A stretch of DNA of 64,000 nucleotides from a virus, in the IMG/VR virus record IMGVR_UViG_3300020385_000008, positions 33,657-97,656 of that record; one strand, 5' to 3'. Positions 9,457-33,732 of the stretch are shown here, piece after piece. The notes below the pieces were generated by a model. The model ran no database searches, was not told the DNA's origin, and saw only the letters and a program-made list of their open reading frames with translations. The position numbers were made by a program, and so were the translations under genes. Positions within the stretch are counted from its first letter, which is position 1. Each line of letters starts with the position of its first letter.

Positions 9457-10587
9457 TTAAAATTCAGATGGGTCAACTGAGGATGCAGTTACTTCACTGG
9501 ACTCAAAGTCAACGTCATTATCAACGGCACCGTAAAGGTCCATAAAGGACTGGCGTGTCTCATCGTCAAAGCGATTGAGGCAGATGTTGATAGCTTTTGC
9601 CTTATCACCAAAGATGCTGTAAGCACGGATGATATGGACTAGTCGGCGAGTGGAGATGATCTCATCAACACCACCATCATAGAAGGTCTTACGGATGATG
9701 TCACCCCAGTCAGCAAGACGCTTACAGAAAGTAGCATCGTCAATACCCAATGTCTTGGCGTATCCTTTGAGCATCTTGGTTTCGATTGCTACGGAAGGAT
9801 ATGACTGCTCAAAGGTGATTGGGAAACGCTCAAGGAAGGCTTCATTCAGAACGTTGGTGCCGATAAAACGACCGTCATCTGATCCCTTACCCTTTGTATT
9901 CGCAGTCGCGATAACATTGAATCCCTCTCTTGGAGTGATGTACTGTCCAATCTTCTTAAGGAATATCCCTTTACCCTCAAGAATGCTCTGCAAGCATAGG
10001 ATTTTGTTGGATGCCAGGTCAATCTCGTCAAGCAATAGGATTGCACCACGTTGGAGTGCCTCAATAACGGGACCGTTATGCCAAACAGTGGCACCATCAA
10101 CGAGGCGAAAACCGCCAATAAGGTCGTCTTCATCAGTTTCAATAGTGATGTTTACACGGATAAGCTCGCGTCCTAGTTGAGCGCAAGCTTGCTCTACACT
10201 AAAAGTCTTACCGTTACCGGAGAGACCAGTAATGAATGTTGGGTAGAACAAACCAGAACTAATAACTTGCTTCACATCAGCAAAGTTGCCGAAAGGAACA
10301 AAGGTTGAGTCTTTTTCTGGAACAAGGTTCTGCTCAACCATAGGAGTAGCTTTTACAGCGGAAGGAGCTTCTACTGTGTGCTCAAGTTCTGCTTTTACTT
10401 GGGAGATATTAAGATTCCACTTACCACGACCAGACTTATATTCTTCTAGGCGGCGGGTTACTGTCTGATAGGTCAGACCCTGAATAGCACAGAATGCACG
10501 AACATCGGCAGCAGAAATCTCCTCACTGAAATTAGAGCGTAGGTTATCCAGCATCTCTTGAGTAGTCATAGCGAGTTGGCGAGGCAT
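9457..10587 (-). CDS. cobS: CobS-like MoxR-family AAA+ ATPase (376 aa from MPRQLA)
   Basis: Walker A GLSGNGKT, Walker B LLLDE, TANTKGKGSDDGRFIGTNVLNEAFLERF, ISTRRLVH; start fixed by the repeat cassette. Confidence 0.93.
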   Translation of the reverse strand: MPRQLAMTTQEMLDNLRSNFSEEISAADVRAFCAIQGLTYQTVTRRLEEYKSGRGKWNLNISQVKAELEHTVEAPSAVKATPMVEQNLVPEKDSTFVPFGNFADVKQVISSGLFYPTFITGLSGNGKTFSVEQACAQLGRELIRVNITIETDEDDLIGGFRLVDGATVWHNGPVIEALQRGAILLLDEIDLASNKILCLQSILEGKGIFLKKIGQYITPREGFNVIATANTKGKGSDDGRFIGTNVLNEAFLERFPITFEQSYPSVAIETKMLKGYAKTLGIDDATFCKRLADWGDIIRKTFYDGGVDEIISTRRLVHIIRAYSIFGDKAKAINICLNRFDDETRQSFMDLYGAVDNDVDFESSEVTASSVDPSEF

Positions 10588-10649
10588 AGTGGGCTTGTGT
10601 TGTATGTGATTATTATAAAGCATAAAAAAGCCCCATAGTGGGGCAGTGG
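10585..10649 (-). repeat. Terminator-promoter-leader cassette, copy 1 (ends at the cobS ATG)
   Basis: 60/65 identical to 10905-10969 by hand alignment; GCCCC hairpin, T run, TATAAT, leader and ATG. Confidence 0.92.
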
Positions 10650-10907
10650 TCAGTTTAGGTAGTGCCCAATAATATAGACAGCAAAACTCATAACGATAAG
10701 GATAAGGGTAATGACCCACAGTCTTGTTATTTTCTTGTGTTGAGCTTGTTGGGTATAAGAGAGTCTTTCCGAGAATTCGCGTTTACGATCATGGAACTCT
10801 AACGCCTGTTGCCAGAAAAAGTCATTATCGTCAAAGGTTCCATTCTTCTTCTTCTCATCCCATAGTTCTTGGACTTTCTGTTCTAAATCAGTCTGCTGTG
10901 GAAACAT
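10650..10907 (-). CDS. Hypothetical 85-aa protein with a C-terminal TM helix
   Basis: MFPQQ start lies at the end of repeat copy 2; hydrophobic LWVITLILIVMSFAVYIIG. Confidence 0.75.
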   Translation of the reverse strand: MFPQQTDLEQKVQELWDEKKKNGTFDDNDFFWQQALEFHDRKREFSERLSYTQQAQHKKITRLWVITLILIVMSFAVYIIGHYLN

Positions 10908-10969
10908 AGTTGACTTGTGTTGCATGTGATTATTATAGAGCATAAAAAAGCCCCTTAGTGGGGCAGTGG
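10905..10969 (-). repeat. Terminator-promoter-leader cassette, copy 2
   Basis: CCACTGCCCCACTAAGGGGCTTTTTTATGCTCTATAATAATCACATGCAACACAAGTCAACTATG; 320 bp from copy 1. Confidence 0.92.
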
Positions 10970-10973
10970 ACAC

Positions 10974-11642
10974 TTACCATTCTGTTTCTGTCATTCGATG
11001 AAAATTTGTAAGAATTGTTTCAGCCATAAATTCAGGATTTTGTATGGCTTCTTCTATTGAGGGTGGTCTTCCAGTTCTCATTAATTGTTTTCTTAAACTA
11101 TGTAAATGGCTATAAATATCTGTCATATAATCTGGAGGAAATTTACTATGGGTCCAGAATACACTAACATCACGCCTACCCCTAGTTACTTCACTTACTT
11201 CGTGAATAAATCCAGTATTATATGTAACGGCATAACCAGCATCTAGTTTATGTTCACTAATTTCATGATCATAAATCCTTAAGTATCCACCATCATATTC
11301 ATTGGGGTTATTTAAAAACACAGTAGTACTGTAATGACCTACTTCAGGAGCATCTTGGTGTGGTCTATAGAATCCTCCGACATTAGTTCTAGAATATATG
11401 GGCACATTTGTAGATTTAGCTGCGACTTTTCCCAAAAAAGGATAATCATGGTCTAAAGCTTCAAAAATTATTTTAGATATTTCTACAATATTTTCATTAC
11501 TACGACAGAACTCTGAATTATTTTTTAATGACAAATCAGTATGATCAGTTGAGTTGGTTCCATTTACCCACAAACCACCATCCATCATAGATTGTATCTG
11601 TGAAAGTTGTTCTTGATCCAACAATTTTCTAATATAAATCAT
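10974..11642 (-). CDS. PKHD-type 2OG-Fe(II) hydroxylase (PiuC/YbiX-like)
   Basis: HQD iron motif, TVFLNNPNEYDGGYL, HEVSEVTRGRR. Confidence 0.85.
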   Translation of the reverse strand: MIYIRKLLDQEQLSQIQSMMDGGLWVNGTNSTDHTDLSLKNNSEFCRSNENIVEISKIIFEALDHDYPFLGKVAAKSTNVPIYSRTNVGGFYRPHQDAPEVGHYSTTVFLNNPNEYDGGYLRIYDHEISEHKLDAGYAVTYNTGFIHEVSEVTRGRRDVSVFWTHSKFPPDYMTDIYSHLHSLRKQLMRTGRPPSIEEAIQNPEFMAETILTNFHRMTETEW

Positions 11643-12178
11643 TTGTTTAAATGCTCCAATAGTGCTGTGGCTTCACCAAAACGGTCAACATAGTGAACAT
11701 AATCCATCTCTTTATTAGATAGAAAACCATTCTCAACCATCTCTTCTTCTAACCAATCTTTGAGAGTTCTCCACATTCTACCAACACAAATTATTGGCTT
11801 CTGTTCAATATGGTTTACTTGGATTAGTTGATAGATCATAGCCATTTCTAGGAGAGTACCAATTCCACCAGGGGTAACAATAAAGGCATCACAATTTGAG
11901 AAAGTATCCAGTCTAGTGAAGAAATCATCGTGTTTTGTAAAGTCATAAACATACTGGTTGACTGCCTCTTCAAATGGTAAATAGATTGCTTCTGCTTCTG
12001 ACCTAGTAAGGTCAACAGACGCTGCACCCTTGTTTGCTGCTTCCATAGTACCTGGTCCACCACCCGTGACTACAATCCAACCAGTTTGAGCACAGCGCTT
12101 TCCTAGACGCTCTACAGCATCATAGAGCTTGCTGTCTGGATCAGTTCTAGATGAACCAAAAATTGCTACTTTTTTCAT
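11639..12178 (-). CDS. LOG-family nucleotide 5'-monophosphate phosphoribohydrolase
   Basis: IFGSS, TGGGPGTMEAAN, FFTR and PGGIGTLLE (PGGxGTxxE) motifs. Confidence 0.9.
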   Translation of the reverse strand: MKKVAIFGSSRTDPDSKLYDAVERLGKRCAQTGWIVVTGGGPGTMEAANKGAASVDLTRSEAEAIYLPFEEAVNQYVYDFTKHDDFFTRLDTFSNCDAFIVTPGGIGTLLEMAMIYQLIQVNHIEQKPIICVGRMWRTLKDWLEEEMVENGFLSNKEMDYVHYVDRFGEATALLEHLNK

Positions 12179-12933
12179 TGTTCGTTTATTGCGATAAAGT
12201 TTGTTGTCATGTAATGCTCATCATACTCAGTATATCTATCTAACTTAAATGGACCAAATGGTGTAATTCGGTACATAGAGAAACCTAGTTCTTTAAAGTA
12301 GTACCAGAAATCACGATAATGAGTCTTAGTATCAATGTTACAACCACCGAATTCAAACTGAATAATTTTTGTTTTAGATAGGAGAGCACCAAAACCATCC
12401 AAAACATCTAACTCATGACCCTCCACATCAATTTTAACATAATCAATATGCCTATCATCCCAATAATTATCAAACCTAATGACTTCCACAGTTTCTTCTA
12501 GGTTCATTTTTATATTGACATGATCAATATTTCTTTTGGTGAGAGAAGCTAGTCCAGAACCAGGTTCGTTTGAGTAAAGTGTAAGTGTATCTTCTTTATT
12601 AGATAATGCTTTTCCATTTACAATGACATTAGAAAGTGAATCAAATTTAGCTTTTAGTATTTGTACGTTAGAAGAAGATGGCTCAAATATGTGACACTCT
12701 GTTTCAGGAAATCTTCTAAGAACTTCTTCGGTATAAAGACCTTTATTTCCCCCAATATCAACAAATACATTTGGTATACTTTCTGCTAGAGATACACAAG
12801 AATCCACTTCAGCAAAGATAGTTGCTGTTCCCCATCCCTTTCCTTGCATACTAGCTGCATATGTTTCCAACTCAAAAAAATCTTTTTGATTGATACAGAA
12901 ACTATGAATAGCGTTACGTAATTCTTGATTCAT
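12175..12933 (-). CDS. FkbM-family SAM-dependent methyltransferase
   Basis: VDIGGNKG, FEP, IDYVKIDVEGHELDVLDG and IQFE motifs; TGTGTTATAAT promoter at 12955-12965. Confidence 0.9.
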   Translation of the reverse strand: MNQELRNAIHSFCINQKDFFELETYAASMQGKGWGTATIFAEVDSCVSLAESIPNVFVDIGGNKGLYTEEVLRRFPETECHIFEPSSSNVQILKAKFDSLSNVIVNGKALSNKEDTLTLYSNEPGSGLASLTKRNIDHVNIKMNLEETVEVIRFDNYWDDRHIDYVKIDVEGHELDVLDGFGALLSKTKIIQFEFGGCNIDTKTHYRDFWYYFKELGFSMYRITPFGPFKLDRYTEYDEHYMTTNFIAINEQ

Positions 12934-12965
12934 ATCTTTAATATGGGTATTCTAATTATAACACA

Positions 12966-15134
12966 TTATGCAATGAGTGAGATGAAATCACTCAACACCT
13001 TCTTGTTATTCTTCTTGCTTTTTAGTGACTTACTAAACGCTGATTTAATTTTAGCTTTAGTGGCTCCTTCATCCACATCAAATTCAGCAGACTCTTGGAC
13101 TGTATCAGAATCCACGATGTAGTACTTGTTATATCCAGCATTAGTTAGAGCAATTGTTTTTTCTTTCTTCCACTTCGCAATTTGTGCATCATCATATCCA
13201 ACTGCTTGGCGAACGAACCATCCACCACGTTTTTCTAGGATACGGAATCCAGTGAAGGTAGTTTGGGGGAACTCAAAACGTAAGTCCTCCAGAATTGTTG
13301 AGGTGACACCACACAACTTCTCCTTATCAATTTTACGAACAGTCCCTGTGACTCGGTTGCGAAGGTATCCATTTTGGTGACCCAATCGCCCTACACTTAT
13401 TTTAGTTTGACCATCATATGACTCGATTTCAGTGGTATACCTAGTCCAACTAGCTTCACCATCAGTGAGAACCATTACGTGTGCCTTCTCAACATTATTA
13501 CGTTGCTGGAAATCTGGAAGAATCTTACGTAAAGTGATTAGTGCTTCATTTAGAGGAGTACCAGAAAGACCCACTCTACTAGGAACAATATTTCCACCCC
13601 TAGTCGTATAAGAAGATGCGATCATAAAAATAGTTTCCATTTGGCGCAGCAACTCCTTACGGTTGACTGTACTAGTAAGAATATTCATCATACTAAACTC
13701 ATCACCAACAACTAACTCATTAGGAATATCACTGTTCGTATAATAGTTTGCATTATCGCGATTCCACTCGTTAGTAAATGCATAGACTTCAAATGGAATA
13801 TTTACTTTATCGCAGAACATAACGATAGAGAGTAGTTGCTTGATAGTATCTTCCAAGATATGACACATAGAACCAGACCAATCTAGAACAAATACCAGAC
13901 CGTGGTTCTTACCTTCAGGTAGAGTTGTGACCTTCTTAAAGATATCTTCGTTGTACTTATATGTGTGAAGTTTAGTGCAATCTAATACACCAGTCCTAGA
14001 TGTTGAAGAGCGAGAGTAAGCAGAGGCTGACTTCCTACATTCAAACTCCTTAACCATATAGTTGACTTCACTTTGGATGTTGCGCTTAAATTCATTGAAA
14101 TTCTTATCATATCCACCAAATAATGTCTTAATAAAGTAATCAGCATTTTCAGGATTCGTATTATAAAAAAATTCACGCTGCCTCTCAAATGAAGAGTTAA
14201 TATATTCGTGTATTTCTTTGTTAGAAGCAATATACTTAGCTGCAGAGAATGATGGATAAGTTAGATATAGGGGCTGATTATACGTATTAGTTGTAGCCAT
14301 ATCTTCAAGGTTCTCATTGAAGTTCTCCATTGTACTTACATTATCAGTAAGATTACCTGCGGTATCTCCACCACCAATTTCATCGTCACGTGACTCCATA
14401 CTTTCACCCTGCTCATCACTCTCACCATCCTCCTCCTGGGGGGAACCACCCTCACTTGATTCACCTTCACTATCGGATGGTCCCTCTTCTGGCTCTTCAC
14501 CCTCACCACCATCCTTCCCCTGTGGCTCTTCAGTGCCTTCAGGAGAAGAACTAGCATCTTCATCACCAGTTTGCTTCTGCTCCTCTTTCTGCTGCTCGTG
14601 GAGGGCATAGAGGGCTTCTGCTGCTGCAAGAGCATCATCAAAGGTGACTGCTGCAGCACATTGGTCCACAACAACCATTTCAGAAGATGTGAAAGGAACT
14701 TTAATGAAGTTGCCGATCTTAAAGTGTAGGTTTACGCGGTCAGCAATGTTCATAGCTGCTACATCTTCATCAGCAATACCAAAGAAGTCTTGGTCATGGA
14801 GTTCGTGGTATCCACGGAAGAATGTCTTGGGTAGACCCACATACTTCTTCTTCATCAATACTTCAATGCGCACATCTTCCGTGACGTTGACGAAGCCCTG
14901 TGGAACTTTAGTCTTCTTTCTCCAATCCTCATTGGGTGTAAAGAGAGCGTGAGCCACTTCGTGTGCAATAAGGAGGTTGAATACATTATTAGATGCTTTC
15001 TCCCATCGTGGGAGAGTGAGTACACGACTCTGGACGTTGAAGCTAGCTGTGCTTACATTCTTGTGCTCAACCAAGAGGTCTTCTGTTGCGAGCAGACGGG
15101 CAAGAGTGCCTTTGACTTCTAGGTTGACTGACAT
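12966..15134 (-). CDS. CobT-like protein: N-terminal HEXXH zincin domain, acidic linker, C-terminal VWA domain
   Basis: HEVAH and NVTEDVRIE; E/D/G/S-rich linker; MIDAS elements DWSGS, GTPL, VLTDGE. Confidence 0.88.
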   Translation of the reverse strand: MSVNLEVKGTLARLLATEDLLVEHKNVSTASFNVQSRVLTLPRWEKASNNVFNLLIAHEVAHALFTPNEDWRKKTKVPQGFVNVTEDVRIEVLMKKKYVGLPKTFFRGYHELHDQDFFGIADEDVAAMNIADRVNLHFKIGNFIKVPFTSSEMVVVDQCAAAVTFDDALAAAEALYALHEQQKEEQKQTGDEDASSSPEGTEEPQGKDGGEGEEPEEGPSDSEGESSEGGSPQEEDGESDEQGESMESRDDEIGGGDTAGNLTDNVSTMENFNENLEDMATTNTYNQPLYLTYPSFSAAKYIASNKEIHEYINSSFERQREFFYNTNPENADYFIKTLFGGYDKNFNEFKRNIQSEVNYMVKEFECRKSASAYSRSSTSRTGVLDCTKLHTYKYNEDIFKKVTTLPEGKNHGLVFVLDWSGSMCHILEDTIKQLLSIVMFCDKVNIPFEVYAFTNEWNRDNANYYTNSDIPNELVVGDEFSMMNILTSTVNRKELLRQMETIFMIASSYTTRGGNIVPSRVGLSGTPLNEALITLRKILPDFQQRNNVEKAHVMVLTDGEASWTRYTTEIESYDGQTKISVGRLGHQNGYLRNRVTGTVRKIDKEKLCGVTSTILEDLRFEFPQTTFTGFRILEKRGGWFVRQAVGYDDAQIAKWKKEKTIALTNAGYNKYYIVDSDTVQESAEFDVDEGATKAKIKSAFSKSLKSKKNNKKVLSDFISLIA

Positions 15135-15154
15135 AGCGTATCCGTTTCAATGAA

Positions 15155-15200
15155 ATTATTATAGGGCATTAAAAAGCCCCTTGGTGGGGCAGTAGACAGT
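15155..15200 (-). repeat. Terminator-promoter cassette, copy 3 (partial, upstream of the CobT-like gene)
   Basis: ACTGTCTACTGCCCCACCAAGGGGCTTTTTAATGCCCTATAATAAT matches the first ~46 nt of copies 1 and 2. Confidence 0.88.
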
Positions 15201-15202
15201 TA

Positions 15203-15913
15203 CTAAATTGTCTTTTCCATCATAGAAATATGTTCAGCAATTTCTGTAAAATCATTACCTCCAGCATTACATACCCTATAAGTGCCATATCGACAGCACC
15301 AACCAGTGAGTAAGTACTTAACACCACTAGTCAATTCTTCACCTCTATGTGTCCAAAATTGACTGGAAGGAAATAATAGTAACTTACCAGGTTCAGAAAT
15401 AATATTTTTACTTACTCCACAATTATAAAATTGAGTTTTTCCATTATCCAATTGATCTGACCTATCATTTAGATATAAAATATAAGTGAATATTCTGTTA
15501 TTGACAAATGCCACTTCATAATCAGTTTCTTTGTGGATGAAACTGCGTAGAGGAACAACTTCACTAGACGCATCATCATGCCAGTGGTAGTGTCCACCAG
15601 GAGTAGTTCTTTGAATCTGATACCCACGATCATGAAACATCATAGGTTCAGAATAATGAGCATCTTTAATAAGTAAATCCATATAGTTCGTAAAATATGG
15701 ATTAAATGCTTTGTATAATACATCATCAATGTCATCCCATTTTGGATCACCAGTGATAAGTAAATCATCGGAAATTTTTGAATTTGTTAAACCAGCACCA
15801 CTCTTTCCAGGTTTAACTTTTTCATCAGCTTCAAACCTATCAATTATCTCATCGCATAACTCCTTACTAACAACATTTGGGTATTCGATAATGTAATCTT
15901 CAAATGATCTCAT
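15203..15913 (-). CDS. 2OG-Fe(II) oxygenase (prolyl-4-hydroxylase-like)
   Basis: YHWHDD, TYILYLND, GKLLLFPS, HRG and KYLLTGW motifs. Confidence 0.88.
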   Translation of the reverse strand: MRSFEDYIIEYPNVVSKELCDEIIDRFEADEKVKPGKSGAGLTNSKISDDLLITGDPKWDDIDDVLYKAFNPYFTNYMDLLIKDAHYSEPMMFHDRGYQIQRTTPGGHYHWHDDASSEVVPLRSFIHKETDYEVAFVNNRIFTYILYLNDRSDQLDNGKTQFYNCGVSKNIISEPGKLLLFPSSQFWTHRGEELTSGVKYLLTGWCCRYGTYRVCNAGGNDFTEIAEHISMMEKTI

Positions 15914-33615: not shown

Positions 33616-33732
33616 ATTTTTTACCTGGATAATTTAATAATATTTAGAATAAAGATGAATGCGAATAGAAAGGCAGCGCTTTCGTAGAAATGACCCATTG
33701 GGGGTTAAGAAGTATTAAAGACGCATTATATA

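Follow-up and report, generated by a model that had tools for sequence, protein, structure and literature searches.

In the type-II LOG protein Cg1261, Arg155 and Glu178 are catalytic, Thr175 binds phosphate, and Lys156 and Asp177 contact the adenine; according to the accessible sections of that paper, alanine mutants of the last two residues abolish or nearly abolish hydrolysis of adenosine monophosphate (AMP) (PMC5379747). A small LOG-like phage protein, ORF83, acts against type III Avs and is proposed, in the available part of the report, to hydrolyse AMP (10.1101/2025.06.06.658234). Cellular oxygenases of the PiuC/YbiX/CciO kind are described, in the text available from one paper, as partners of a TonB-dependent iron transporter (CciO with CciT, PiuC with PiuA; PMC12004947), and cyanomyovirus genomes are reported to carry numerous copies of 2-oxoglutarate (2OG) oxygenases (PMC3037559, accessible portion). 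In T4-type phages, cassettes shuffled in association with promoter-early stem-loops (PeSLs) have been described (Arbiol et al. 2010, PMC2839356, accessible portion). Here we analyse a locus in which relatives of these elements meet. It lies in a stretch of 64,000 nucleotides (nt), called the window throughout, that covers positions 33,657 to 97,656 of the IMG/VR virus record IMGVR_UViG_3300020385_000008, a viral contig of 97,656 nt.

The locus contains three adjacent genes, encoding an FkbM-family S-adenosylmethionine (SAM) methyltransferase (12175-12933; 252 amino acids (aa); PF05050, TIGR01444), a LOG-family protein of type-II-like character (11639-12178; 179 aa; TIGR00730) and a PiuC/PKHD-like 2OG-Fe(II) oxygenase (10974-11642; 222 aa; PF13640). 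The coding strand throughout the region is the minus strand, and the promoter box and repeats described below lie on the same strand. A sequence-only reading had proposed that the three proteins form one pathway for a modified nucleobase. Comparison with relatives indicates instead that the trio is probably a recent mosaic in a plastic slot, in which LOG is the stable resident, the methyltransferase and the oxygenase are separate, variable cargo genes, and no conserved pathway joins them.

The window belongs to a T4-like cyanomyovirus near Synechococcus phage S-CAM7 (Kyanoviridae, Mazuvirus), to which its DNA is 84-92% identical only across LOG and the flanks of the locus. The conserved upstream flank is a CobT-like peptidase (12966-15134; phrog_459, 1.5e-262; 84% nucleotide identity to S-CAM7) and the conserved downstream flank is a CobS-like AAA+ ATPase (9457-10587; phrog_249), whose ATG start was chosen by homology to relatives. 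In S-CAM7, genes gp158 to gp161 encode the peptidase, an open reading frame (ORF) of 66 aa, a LOG of 246 aa and CobS (porphyrin biosynthesis), without a methyltransferase or an oxygenase. Compared with the window, the 66-aa ORF takes the place of the methyltransferase, and a 67-aa C-terminal tail of LOG (L001 4096-4318) takes the place of the oxygenase. This tail is absent from LOG in the window and in phages S-B68 and S-H34, the end of the window protein coinciding with the ends of the latter two, and neither the tail nor the 66-aa ORF has a counterpart in the window (best tblastn E 0.096).

The same exchange is seen on a larger scale in 76 IMG/VR loci with LOG, to which the six proteins encoded here were compared by tblastn. 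LOG lies in the slot between peptidase and CobS in 13 of the 76, and it is present in every one of these as well as in S-CAM7. Its companions vary. The full trio occurs in a single slot locus (L008, whose contig is that of L004); only the methyltransferase is missing from two (L006, L007); in another, the methyltransferase is followed by a further ORF with a separate TGCTATAAT box and then by LOG, inside which the contig ends (L074, on the contig of L005); one has an oxygenase 47% identical to that of the window upstream of LOG (L016); and eight have neither gene (L009-L015, L080). The methyltransferase is absent from the slot in S-CAM7, L006, L007 and L009-L016, and this oxygenase is found 3′ of LOG only in the window, L004/L008, L006 and L007. 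Matches to the methyltransferase, oxygenase, peptidase and CobS were found in none of the 63 IMG/VR LOG loci outside the slot, and a looser search of those loci with the oxygenase as query returned one weak edge match (L020). Among phage isolates, LOG has matches in 19 records, the methyltransferase in 11 (none a cyanophage, at most 30% identity) and the oxygenase in 108 (at most 38%), and no record is common to the LOG and methyltransferase lists.

Outside the slot, the neighbours of LOG are of a different kind. The largest cluster of neighbouring proteins, with 45 loci, is a photosynthetic reaction-centre protein of the psbA/psbD type, and other neighbours (L017-L081) include DUF7441, endonuclease VII, transaldolase and glutaredoxin. 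This count used a crude ORF caller and single-linkage BLAST clusters over at most 76 loci, those in which the LOG ORF was not recovered being dropped, and clusters were named by comparing one representative of each with Pfam.

The contig that carries the trio in L004 is itself uneven in its relation to the window. Identities are 74% for the peptidase and 88% for the methyltransferase, then 97% for LOG, 95% for the oxygenase and 95% for CobS, and this shift suggests a recombination breakpoint between the methyltransferase and LOG.

The signals that gave the trio the appearance of one operon were examined in the same relatives. The three genes and their two ATGA overlaps, methyltransferase/LOG at 12175-12178 and LOG/oxygenase at 11639-11642, are confirmed by ORF calls and sequence. 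With a crude ORF call, overlaps of exactly this 4-nt type account for 5 of the 52 same-strand junctions in the window and overlaps of any length for 13 of the 52, so that two in succession are only mildly unusual here. LOG begins with ATGAA, and the TGA within it closes the methyltransferase in the window and L004, and two unrelated upstream genes elsewhere: the 66-aa ORF (hyp66) in S-CAM7 and L009, and the oxygenase of L016. Because the same TGA serves three unrelated upstream genes, the overlap at the start of LOG is a property of the insertion site.

The promoter motif behaves in the same way. An extended -10 box, TGTTATAAT, lies at 12955-12963, directly after the stop codon of the peptidase and 21 nt before the ATG of the methyltransferase; it is predicted to be promoter-like and has no good -35, which is why a consensus promoter scan did not list it. 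A box of the form TGTG(Y/G)TATAAT occupies the same position in S-CAM7 and in seven of the nine IMG/VR slot loci whose sequence was printed (L004, L006, L009, L010, L011, L015, L016), and is absent from L005 and L013. It is kept whichever gene comes next, be it the methyltransferase, LOG itself, the 66-aa ORF or the other oxygenase. The motif reported at 12955 is thus present, with the qualification that neither the box nor the ATGA at the start of LOG is specific to these three genes.

At the other end of the unit, termination at a repeat, as had been proposed, agrees with the sequence. A GC stem and T-run (10950-10964) lies directly 3′ of the oxygenase stop codon, within a 71-nt PeSL-like repeat (10905-10975) that has a TATAAT downstream of the stem-loop and so joins a predicted terminator to a predicted promoter. 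A second copy (10585-10655, 90% identical to the first) lies directly upstream of CobS and contains a terminator at 10630-10644, and a third, more diverged copy (15131-15201, 66% identical to the reference) lies upstream of the peptidase with a terminator at 15176-15190. The 23-nt core of the repeat has four matches in the window against none in 100 shuffles. Terminator-like sites in the region are confined to these three, with none between the peptidase and the methyltransferase, so that transcription from the copy at 15131-15201, the likely start of a longer transcription unit, may also extend into the trio. The three genes are probably co-transcribed in this phage.

The repeat, like the box, recurs in relatives: the same element directly follows LOG in L009, L011, L016 and S-CAM7, and follows the oxygenase in L006. 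Between the two downstream copies in the window lies a small ORF with a predicted membrane segment (10650-10907; 85 aa from the ATG at 10907), which has no match in Pfam, PHROG or PADLOC. L006 and S-CAM7 have the repeat in single copy and are without this 320-nt cassette. The longest ORF for CobS (9457-10719, from a GTG at 10719) crosses the repeat and its terminator and is an artefact of ORF calling, relatives supporting the ATG at 10587. L004 (4024-4518) shows another cargo variant, in which a different stem-loop and about 500 nt with small ORFs come between the oxygenase and the usual repeat and CobS. Just upstream of the third repeat copy, the one ahead of the peptidase, the window has a further PF13640 oxygenase (15296-15619), as do S-CAM7 (gp157) and L005.

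Variants of the locus were also found in natural populations. The exact stretch is present in marine metagenomes of several studies. One DNA contig (run X10) runs from 10931 to 12178 and continues at 12955 with 20 other letters between, and thus carries LOG and the oxygenase without the methyltransferase. A second DNA contig (run X11) passes directly from 10603 to 10924 and so lacks 320 nt, and the two sides of the joint share 29 letters; this is a clean loss or gain of the membrane-ORF cassette between repeat copies, a PeSL-like exchange in a cyanomyovirus. Bins 12472-12905 have no cover in either data set, but a joining contig backs the absence of the methyltransferase only in X10, and nothing is claimed for X11. 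X10 and X11 also show many short gaps within CobS and the peptidase (flanks of 21-49 letters, 85% likeness), which most likely come from other phages or conserved patches and were ignored. Runs with small shares (X14-X20) do not enter these results. Two contigs from RNA libraries cover the trio (X5, 6376 nt, 9673-15500 with 0 differences; X9, 10734-13003); they were not counted as evidence of expression, because the samples also contain the DNA and contigs cannot show transcription.

Taken together, these results argue for a model in which the space between the CobT-like peptidase and CobS is a plastic slot made of an extended -10 box, LOG and a repeat of the PeSL kind. Upstream of LOG, the slot would accept different inserts according to lineage, namely an FkbM methyltransferase, a 66-aa ORF or a related oxygenase; downstream of LOG it would accept the PiuC-like oxygenase, and between duplicated repeats the small membrane ORF. 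Any upstream insert that closes on the TGA of the ATGAA start of LOG would gain a 4-nt overlap, so that ATGA coupling would come from the insertion site, since LOG supplies the TGA, and not from shared function. The anatomy of the slot, the family membership and independent assortment of its genes and their variants in populations are observed directly; the activity of the promoter and terminators, the way in which inserts arrive and all the substrates we infer. The proposed pathway is not supported, because relatives carry the three genes in differing combinations and show the coupling signals beside unrelated genes as well. The sequence-only reading had named independent assortment in other phages as the observation that would speak against it, and this is what S-CAM7, eight of the 13 slot loci and the 63 others present, the trio being kept in order in one of the 13 and in none of the 63. 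Its fallback, that the three could be unrelated accreted genes, is the better account.

The families of all three proteins are clear, and the catalytic motifs reported for them are intact. LOG scores 73.5 bits against PF03641 (cut-off 27; 2.4e-20) and 100.6 bits against TIGR00730 (cut-off 96.35), and has the motifs GGGPGTME and PGGIGTLLE (P103 to E111). Its best solved relatives are type-II LOGs, 5ZI9 (4.6e-32) and 5WQ3, the structure of Cg1261 (3.3e-27). Residues R89, T108 and E111 align with Arg155, Thr175 and Glu178 of Cg1261, and L90 and L110 occupy the positions of Lys156 and Asp177, so the residues that contact adenine are not kept. In an alignment of 28 cyanophage-type LOGs, R89, T108, E111 and L90 are invariant and L110 is at least 90% conserved. 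This form, 'R-L / L-E', is found in about a third of the 149 best representatives of 50% clusters, among which the first position is L in 53 and K in 94 and the second is L in 51 and D in 89. It marks a broad LOG branch for which, as far as we found, the literature holds no characterisation, and members of the clusters of ten 'R-L' representatives bear generic names only.

LOG falls far below the cut-offs for two functionally defined groups: 46.7 bits against 300 for the equivalog of cytokinin riboside 5′-monophosphate phosphoribohydrolase (NF058542), and 28.1 bits against 450 for PpnN (NF038390), which has flanking domains and about 450 aa against 179 aa here. We infer from its family that LOG is a nucleoside-monophosphate N-glycosidase, which would convert a nucleoside 5′-monophosphate to free base and ribose 5-phosphate, with an altered base pocket. 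A role in the recycling of nucleotides and pentoses during infection may fit its usual neighbours. In the literature searched, no paper pairs cyanophage with LOG-family terms or phosphoribohydrolase.

LOG is widespread beyond the 76 loci, with 751 protein clusters at E ≤ 1e-10, and identities among the 120 listed clusters are 62-97%. Homologues were found in 86 of the 121 picocyanobacterial genomes searched, at only 31-43% identity, which leaves a recent capture of LOG from the host unsupported. Its PHROG matches are named 'DprA-like' (phrog_23875, 1.3e-111; phrog_768, 9.2e-05); the first of these, with 246 positions, seems to be built on the long S-CAM7 form. PADLOC gave only a weak N-terminal match to PsyrA (4e-04), from which no conclusion was drawn. 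A gene of 98 aa directly follows LOG in S-B68 and S-H34, and a homologue of it lies at 1633-1920 of the window (50% identity, 6e-31). It was considered as a conserved partner of LOG and rejected, as the window homologue is about 10 kb from LOG.

The oxygenase scores 38.2 bits against PF13640 (cut-off 27; 3e-09). Its top NCBIfam matches are PRK05467 models, all below cut-off (99.7 against 143, 87.2 against 180, 76.1 against 336 and 49.7 against 399 bits). H95-x-D97 and H147, the iron triad, and R157, for 2OG, align with PiuC (9ghl, 3.1e-13; also 3dkq, 1.1e-09), and in PADLOC only a generic 2OG model was matched, from which nothing was concluded. Five PF13640 matches occur in the 97,656-nt record, and the protein would be one of several PiuC-like paralogues typical of cyanomyoviruses. 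In L016 (4330-5003), the oxygenase that is 47% identical to it over its full length takes the position of the methyltransferase and ends on the same ATGA.

The methyltransferase scores 51.5 bits against PF05050 (cut-off 22.7; 1.7e-13) and 77.6 bits against TIGR01444 (cut-off 37.7). It has the motifs DIGGNKG and KIDVEGHE, and D59, G61, G65 and D169-x-E171-G-H-E174 are invariant in 22 homologues; a profile search against solved structures gave nothing usable (best E 0.073). Close viral copies are rare: IMG/VR has two loci, and JGI metagenomes yielded only these again. Seven 90% clusters lie at 67-88% identity, and one close homologue (P0002) sits on a contig of 206,918 nt. The nearest cellular homologues are 45-55% identical and scattered over Prochlorococcus, SAR86, Isosphaeraceae and others, and in 80 cellular loci with the methyltransferase, neither LOG nor the oxygenase had a match within 5 kb. 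In one Prochlorococcus genome it lies beside genes for a sugar C-methyltransferase, an NDP-sugar epimerase/dehydratase and a NUDIX protein. The methyltransferase most likely derives from an island for the modification of cell-surface sugars or glycans, and would act on a substrate of its own. In a SAR86 genome (L092 1880-5738), a 52%-identical copy directly follows guaB (inosine monophosphate dehydrogenase) and guaA (guanosine monophosphate synthase), the sole nucleotide-related neighbourhood seen for this methyltransferase, which may be a coincidence.

Several observations weigh against a mosaic of unrelated genes. Many IMG/VR loci end at contig ends, and the absence of neighbours there counts for less. 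Three phage lineages have the methyltransferase in this slot (the window; L004, 88% identical; L005, 69%), and it occurs almost nowhere else in viral data, so its placement may not be random; mosaicism leaves its repeated presence in this one slot unaccounted for. A contig of 51,080 nt is listed as the longest for both a 67% methyltransferase cluster (P0004) and an 86% LOG cluster (P0124), which hints at a further co-occurrence of these two genes. Every one of the four contigs with this oxygenase downstream of LOG (window, L004, L006, L007) preserves the ATGA overlap between the two, and with L016 there are two independent adjacencies of LOG and oxygenase among a handful of insertions, which could reflect a functional link. 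This possible link is the main residual doubt, since one oxygenase subfamily lies beside LOG on either side in two lineages.

The alternative that best survives builds on it. Here only LOG and the PiuC-like oxygenase would be linked, the oxygenase perhaps acting on a base or sugar that is a product or substrate of LOG, and the methyltransferase would be an unrelated passenger. The adjacency of one subfamily to LOG on both sides, each time with an ATGA overlap, and the junction preserved in four contigs are consistent with it. However, where the oxygenase lies downstream, the four contigs share 95-100% identity in that part and so probably reflect one event, LOG stands without an adjacent oxygenase in eight of the 13 slot loci and in S-CAM7, and the 63 other LOG loci yield the single edge match in L020. 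Moreover, 2OG oxygenases are plentiful flexible genes, five in 97.7 kb with another just upstream of the peptidase, and a chance meeting of LOG and oxygenase is plausible because such genes are so numerous here and in cyanomyoviruses. We therefore regard this link as unlikely.

A more specific form of the two-enzyme reading, to which we give still less credence, starts from the pocket. The 'R-L / L-E' LOG would no longer fit adenine and, in the S-CAM7 lineage, would twice have been coupled independently, once on each side, to the PiuC-like subfamily, giving a new phage module that turns over nucleotides or destroys a defence messenger. Candidate substrates in that reading are a pyrimidine, a modified nucleotide or a signalling nucleotide.

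It also appears improbable that LOG is an anti-defence protein like ORF83, countering type III Avs, with its neighbours as other host-interaction genes in an early-gene slot. ORF83 is described, in the available part of its report, as a structural homologue of the type-II LOG Cg1261 and is annotated as DprA/Smf (10.1101/2025.06.06.658234), the window LOG bears the same 'DprA-like' PHROG name, and cassettes of the early-gene type, with a sigma-70-like promoter and a terminator, are present in the slot. Yet PADLOC offers nothing beyond the weak PsyrA match. Most cyanophage LOGs sit among metabolic genes (psbA/psbD, transaldolase, glutaredoxin), and the identities among the listed clusters point to a conserved enzymatic role.

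Least probable of all is a single three-step pathway of methyltransferase, LOG and oxygenase that makes, recycles or destroys a methylated and hydroxylated base or a nucleotide messenger: the layout as one unit between promoter box and terminator with two 4-nt overlaps, the catalytic motifs kept in all three proteins, the recurrence of the trio in one independent IMG/VR contig (L004) and a LOG pocket with room for a modified base would suit it, but the same pocket is found in 28 of 28 cyanophage-type sequences, most such loci having neither partner nearby, LOG occurs with the oxygenase and without the methyltransferase in L006, L007 and the X10 contig, and alone in S-CAM7 and eight slot loci, the partner genes are near none of the 80 cellular methyltransferase loci, the ATGA at the start of LOG also closes two unrelated genes, and neither family names nor the accessible literature tie FkbM and PiuC-like enzymes to nucleobase chemistry.

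The recent mosaic in a plastic slot thus remains the preferred account. A true pathway would have given phages a new way of making a modified base, and the comparative data argue against it; the trio looks like ordinary mosaicism. The locus is of interest as a well-resolved case of cargo genes being swapped around a fixed gene in a T4-like cyanophage, with population variants caught in metagenomes. The swaps appear to use a conserved promoter box, an overlap-prone start codon and repeats that combine terminator and promoter. The cyanophage LOG deserves attention in its own right, as it is widespread, has psbA/psbD as its usual neighbours and differs from Cg1261 in the base pocket.

The locus can be set beside the known systems gene by gene. 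With the type-II LOGs, which include TT1465 (1WEK, 4.8e-19) besides CgLOGII, as Cg1261 is also called, and 5ZI9, the window LOG has in common the PGGxGTxxE motif, the catalytic Arg and Glu and the phosphate-binding Thr. It differs in having Leu at both positions of Lys156 and Asp177, and in length: the solved chains have 260-264 aa with a long N-terminal extension, which the window protein of 179 aa does not have. In ORF83, according to the accessible text, an Asp replaces the catalytic Glu, whereas the window LOG keeps the Glu. The methyltransferase is a regular member of the FkbM family (TIGR01444/PF05050), above both cut-offs and with invariant motifs, and its closest cellular copies are found in sugar-modification surroundings and not nucleotide ones, save for the one SAR86 copy. 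The oxygenase has the HxD...H and Arg of PiuC, YbiX and CciO aligned at scores below the PRK05467 cut-offs. The partnership with a TonB-dependent transporter described for the cellular proteins is not repeated here, where the neighbours are LOG and the terminator repeat.

The repeats recall PeSLs, as far as the available text describes these, in that three 71-nt copies combine a GC stem-loop, a T-run and a TATAAT box and flank variable genes, and in that the X11 variant differs from the window by exactly the stretch between two repeat copies. The methyltransferase and oxygenase insertions are not themselves flanked by pairs of repeats. PeSLs have been described in coliphages and in T4-like phages of Yersinia and Vibrio; the word cyanophage is absent from the accessible text of the follow-up published in 2014 (PMC4122927), and the S-PM2 paper, in its available part, judged PeSLs unlikely to explain the ORFanage region of that phage (PMC4503421). 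The closest relative of the locus as a whole is that of S-CAM7, which has the same flanks, the same promoter box and the same repeat of terminator and promoter around a LOG that is 94-95% identical.

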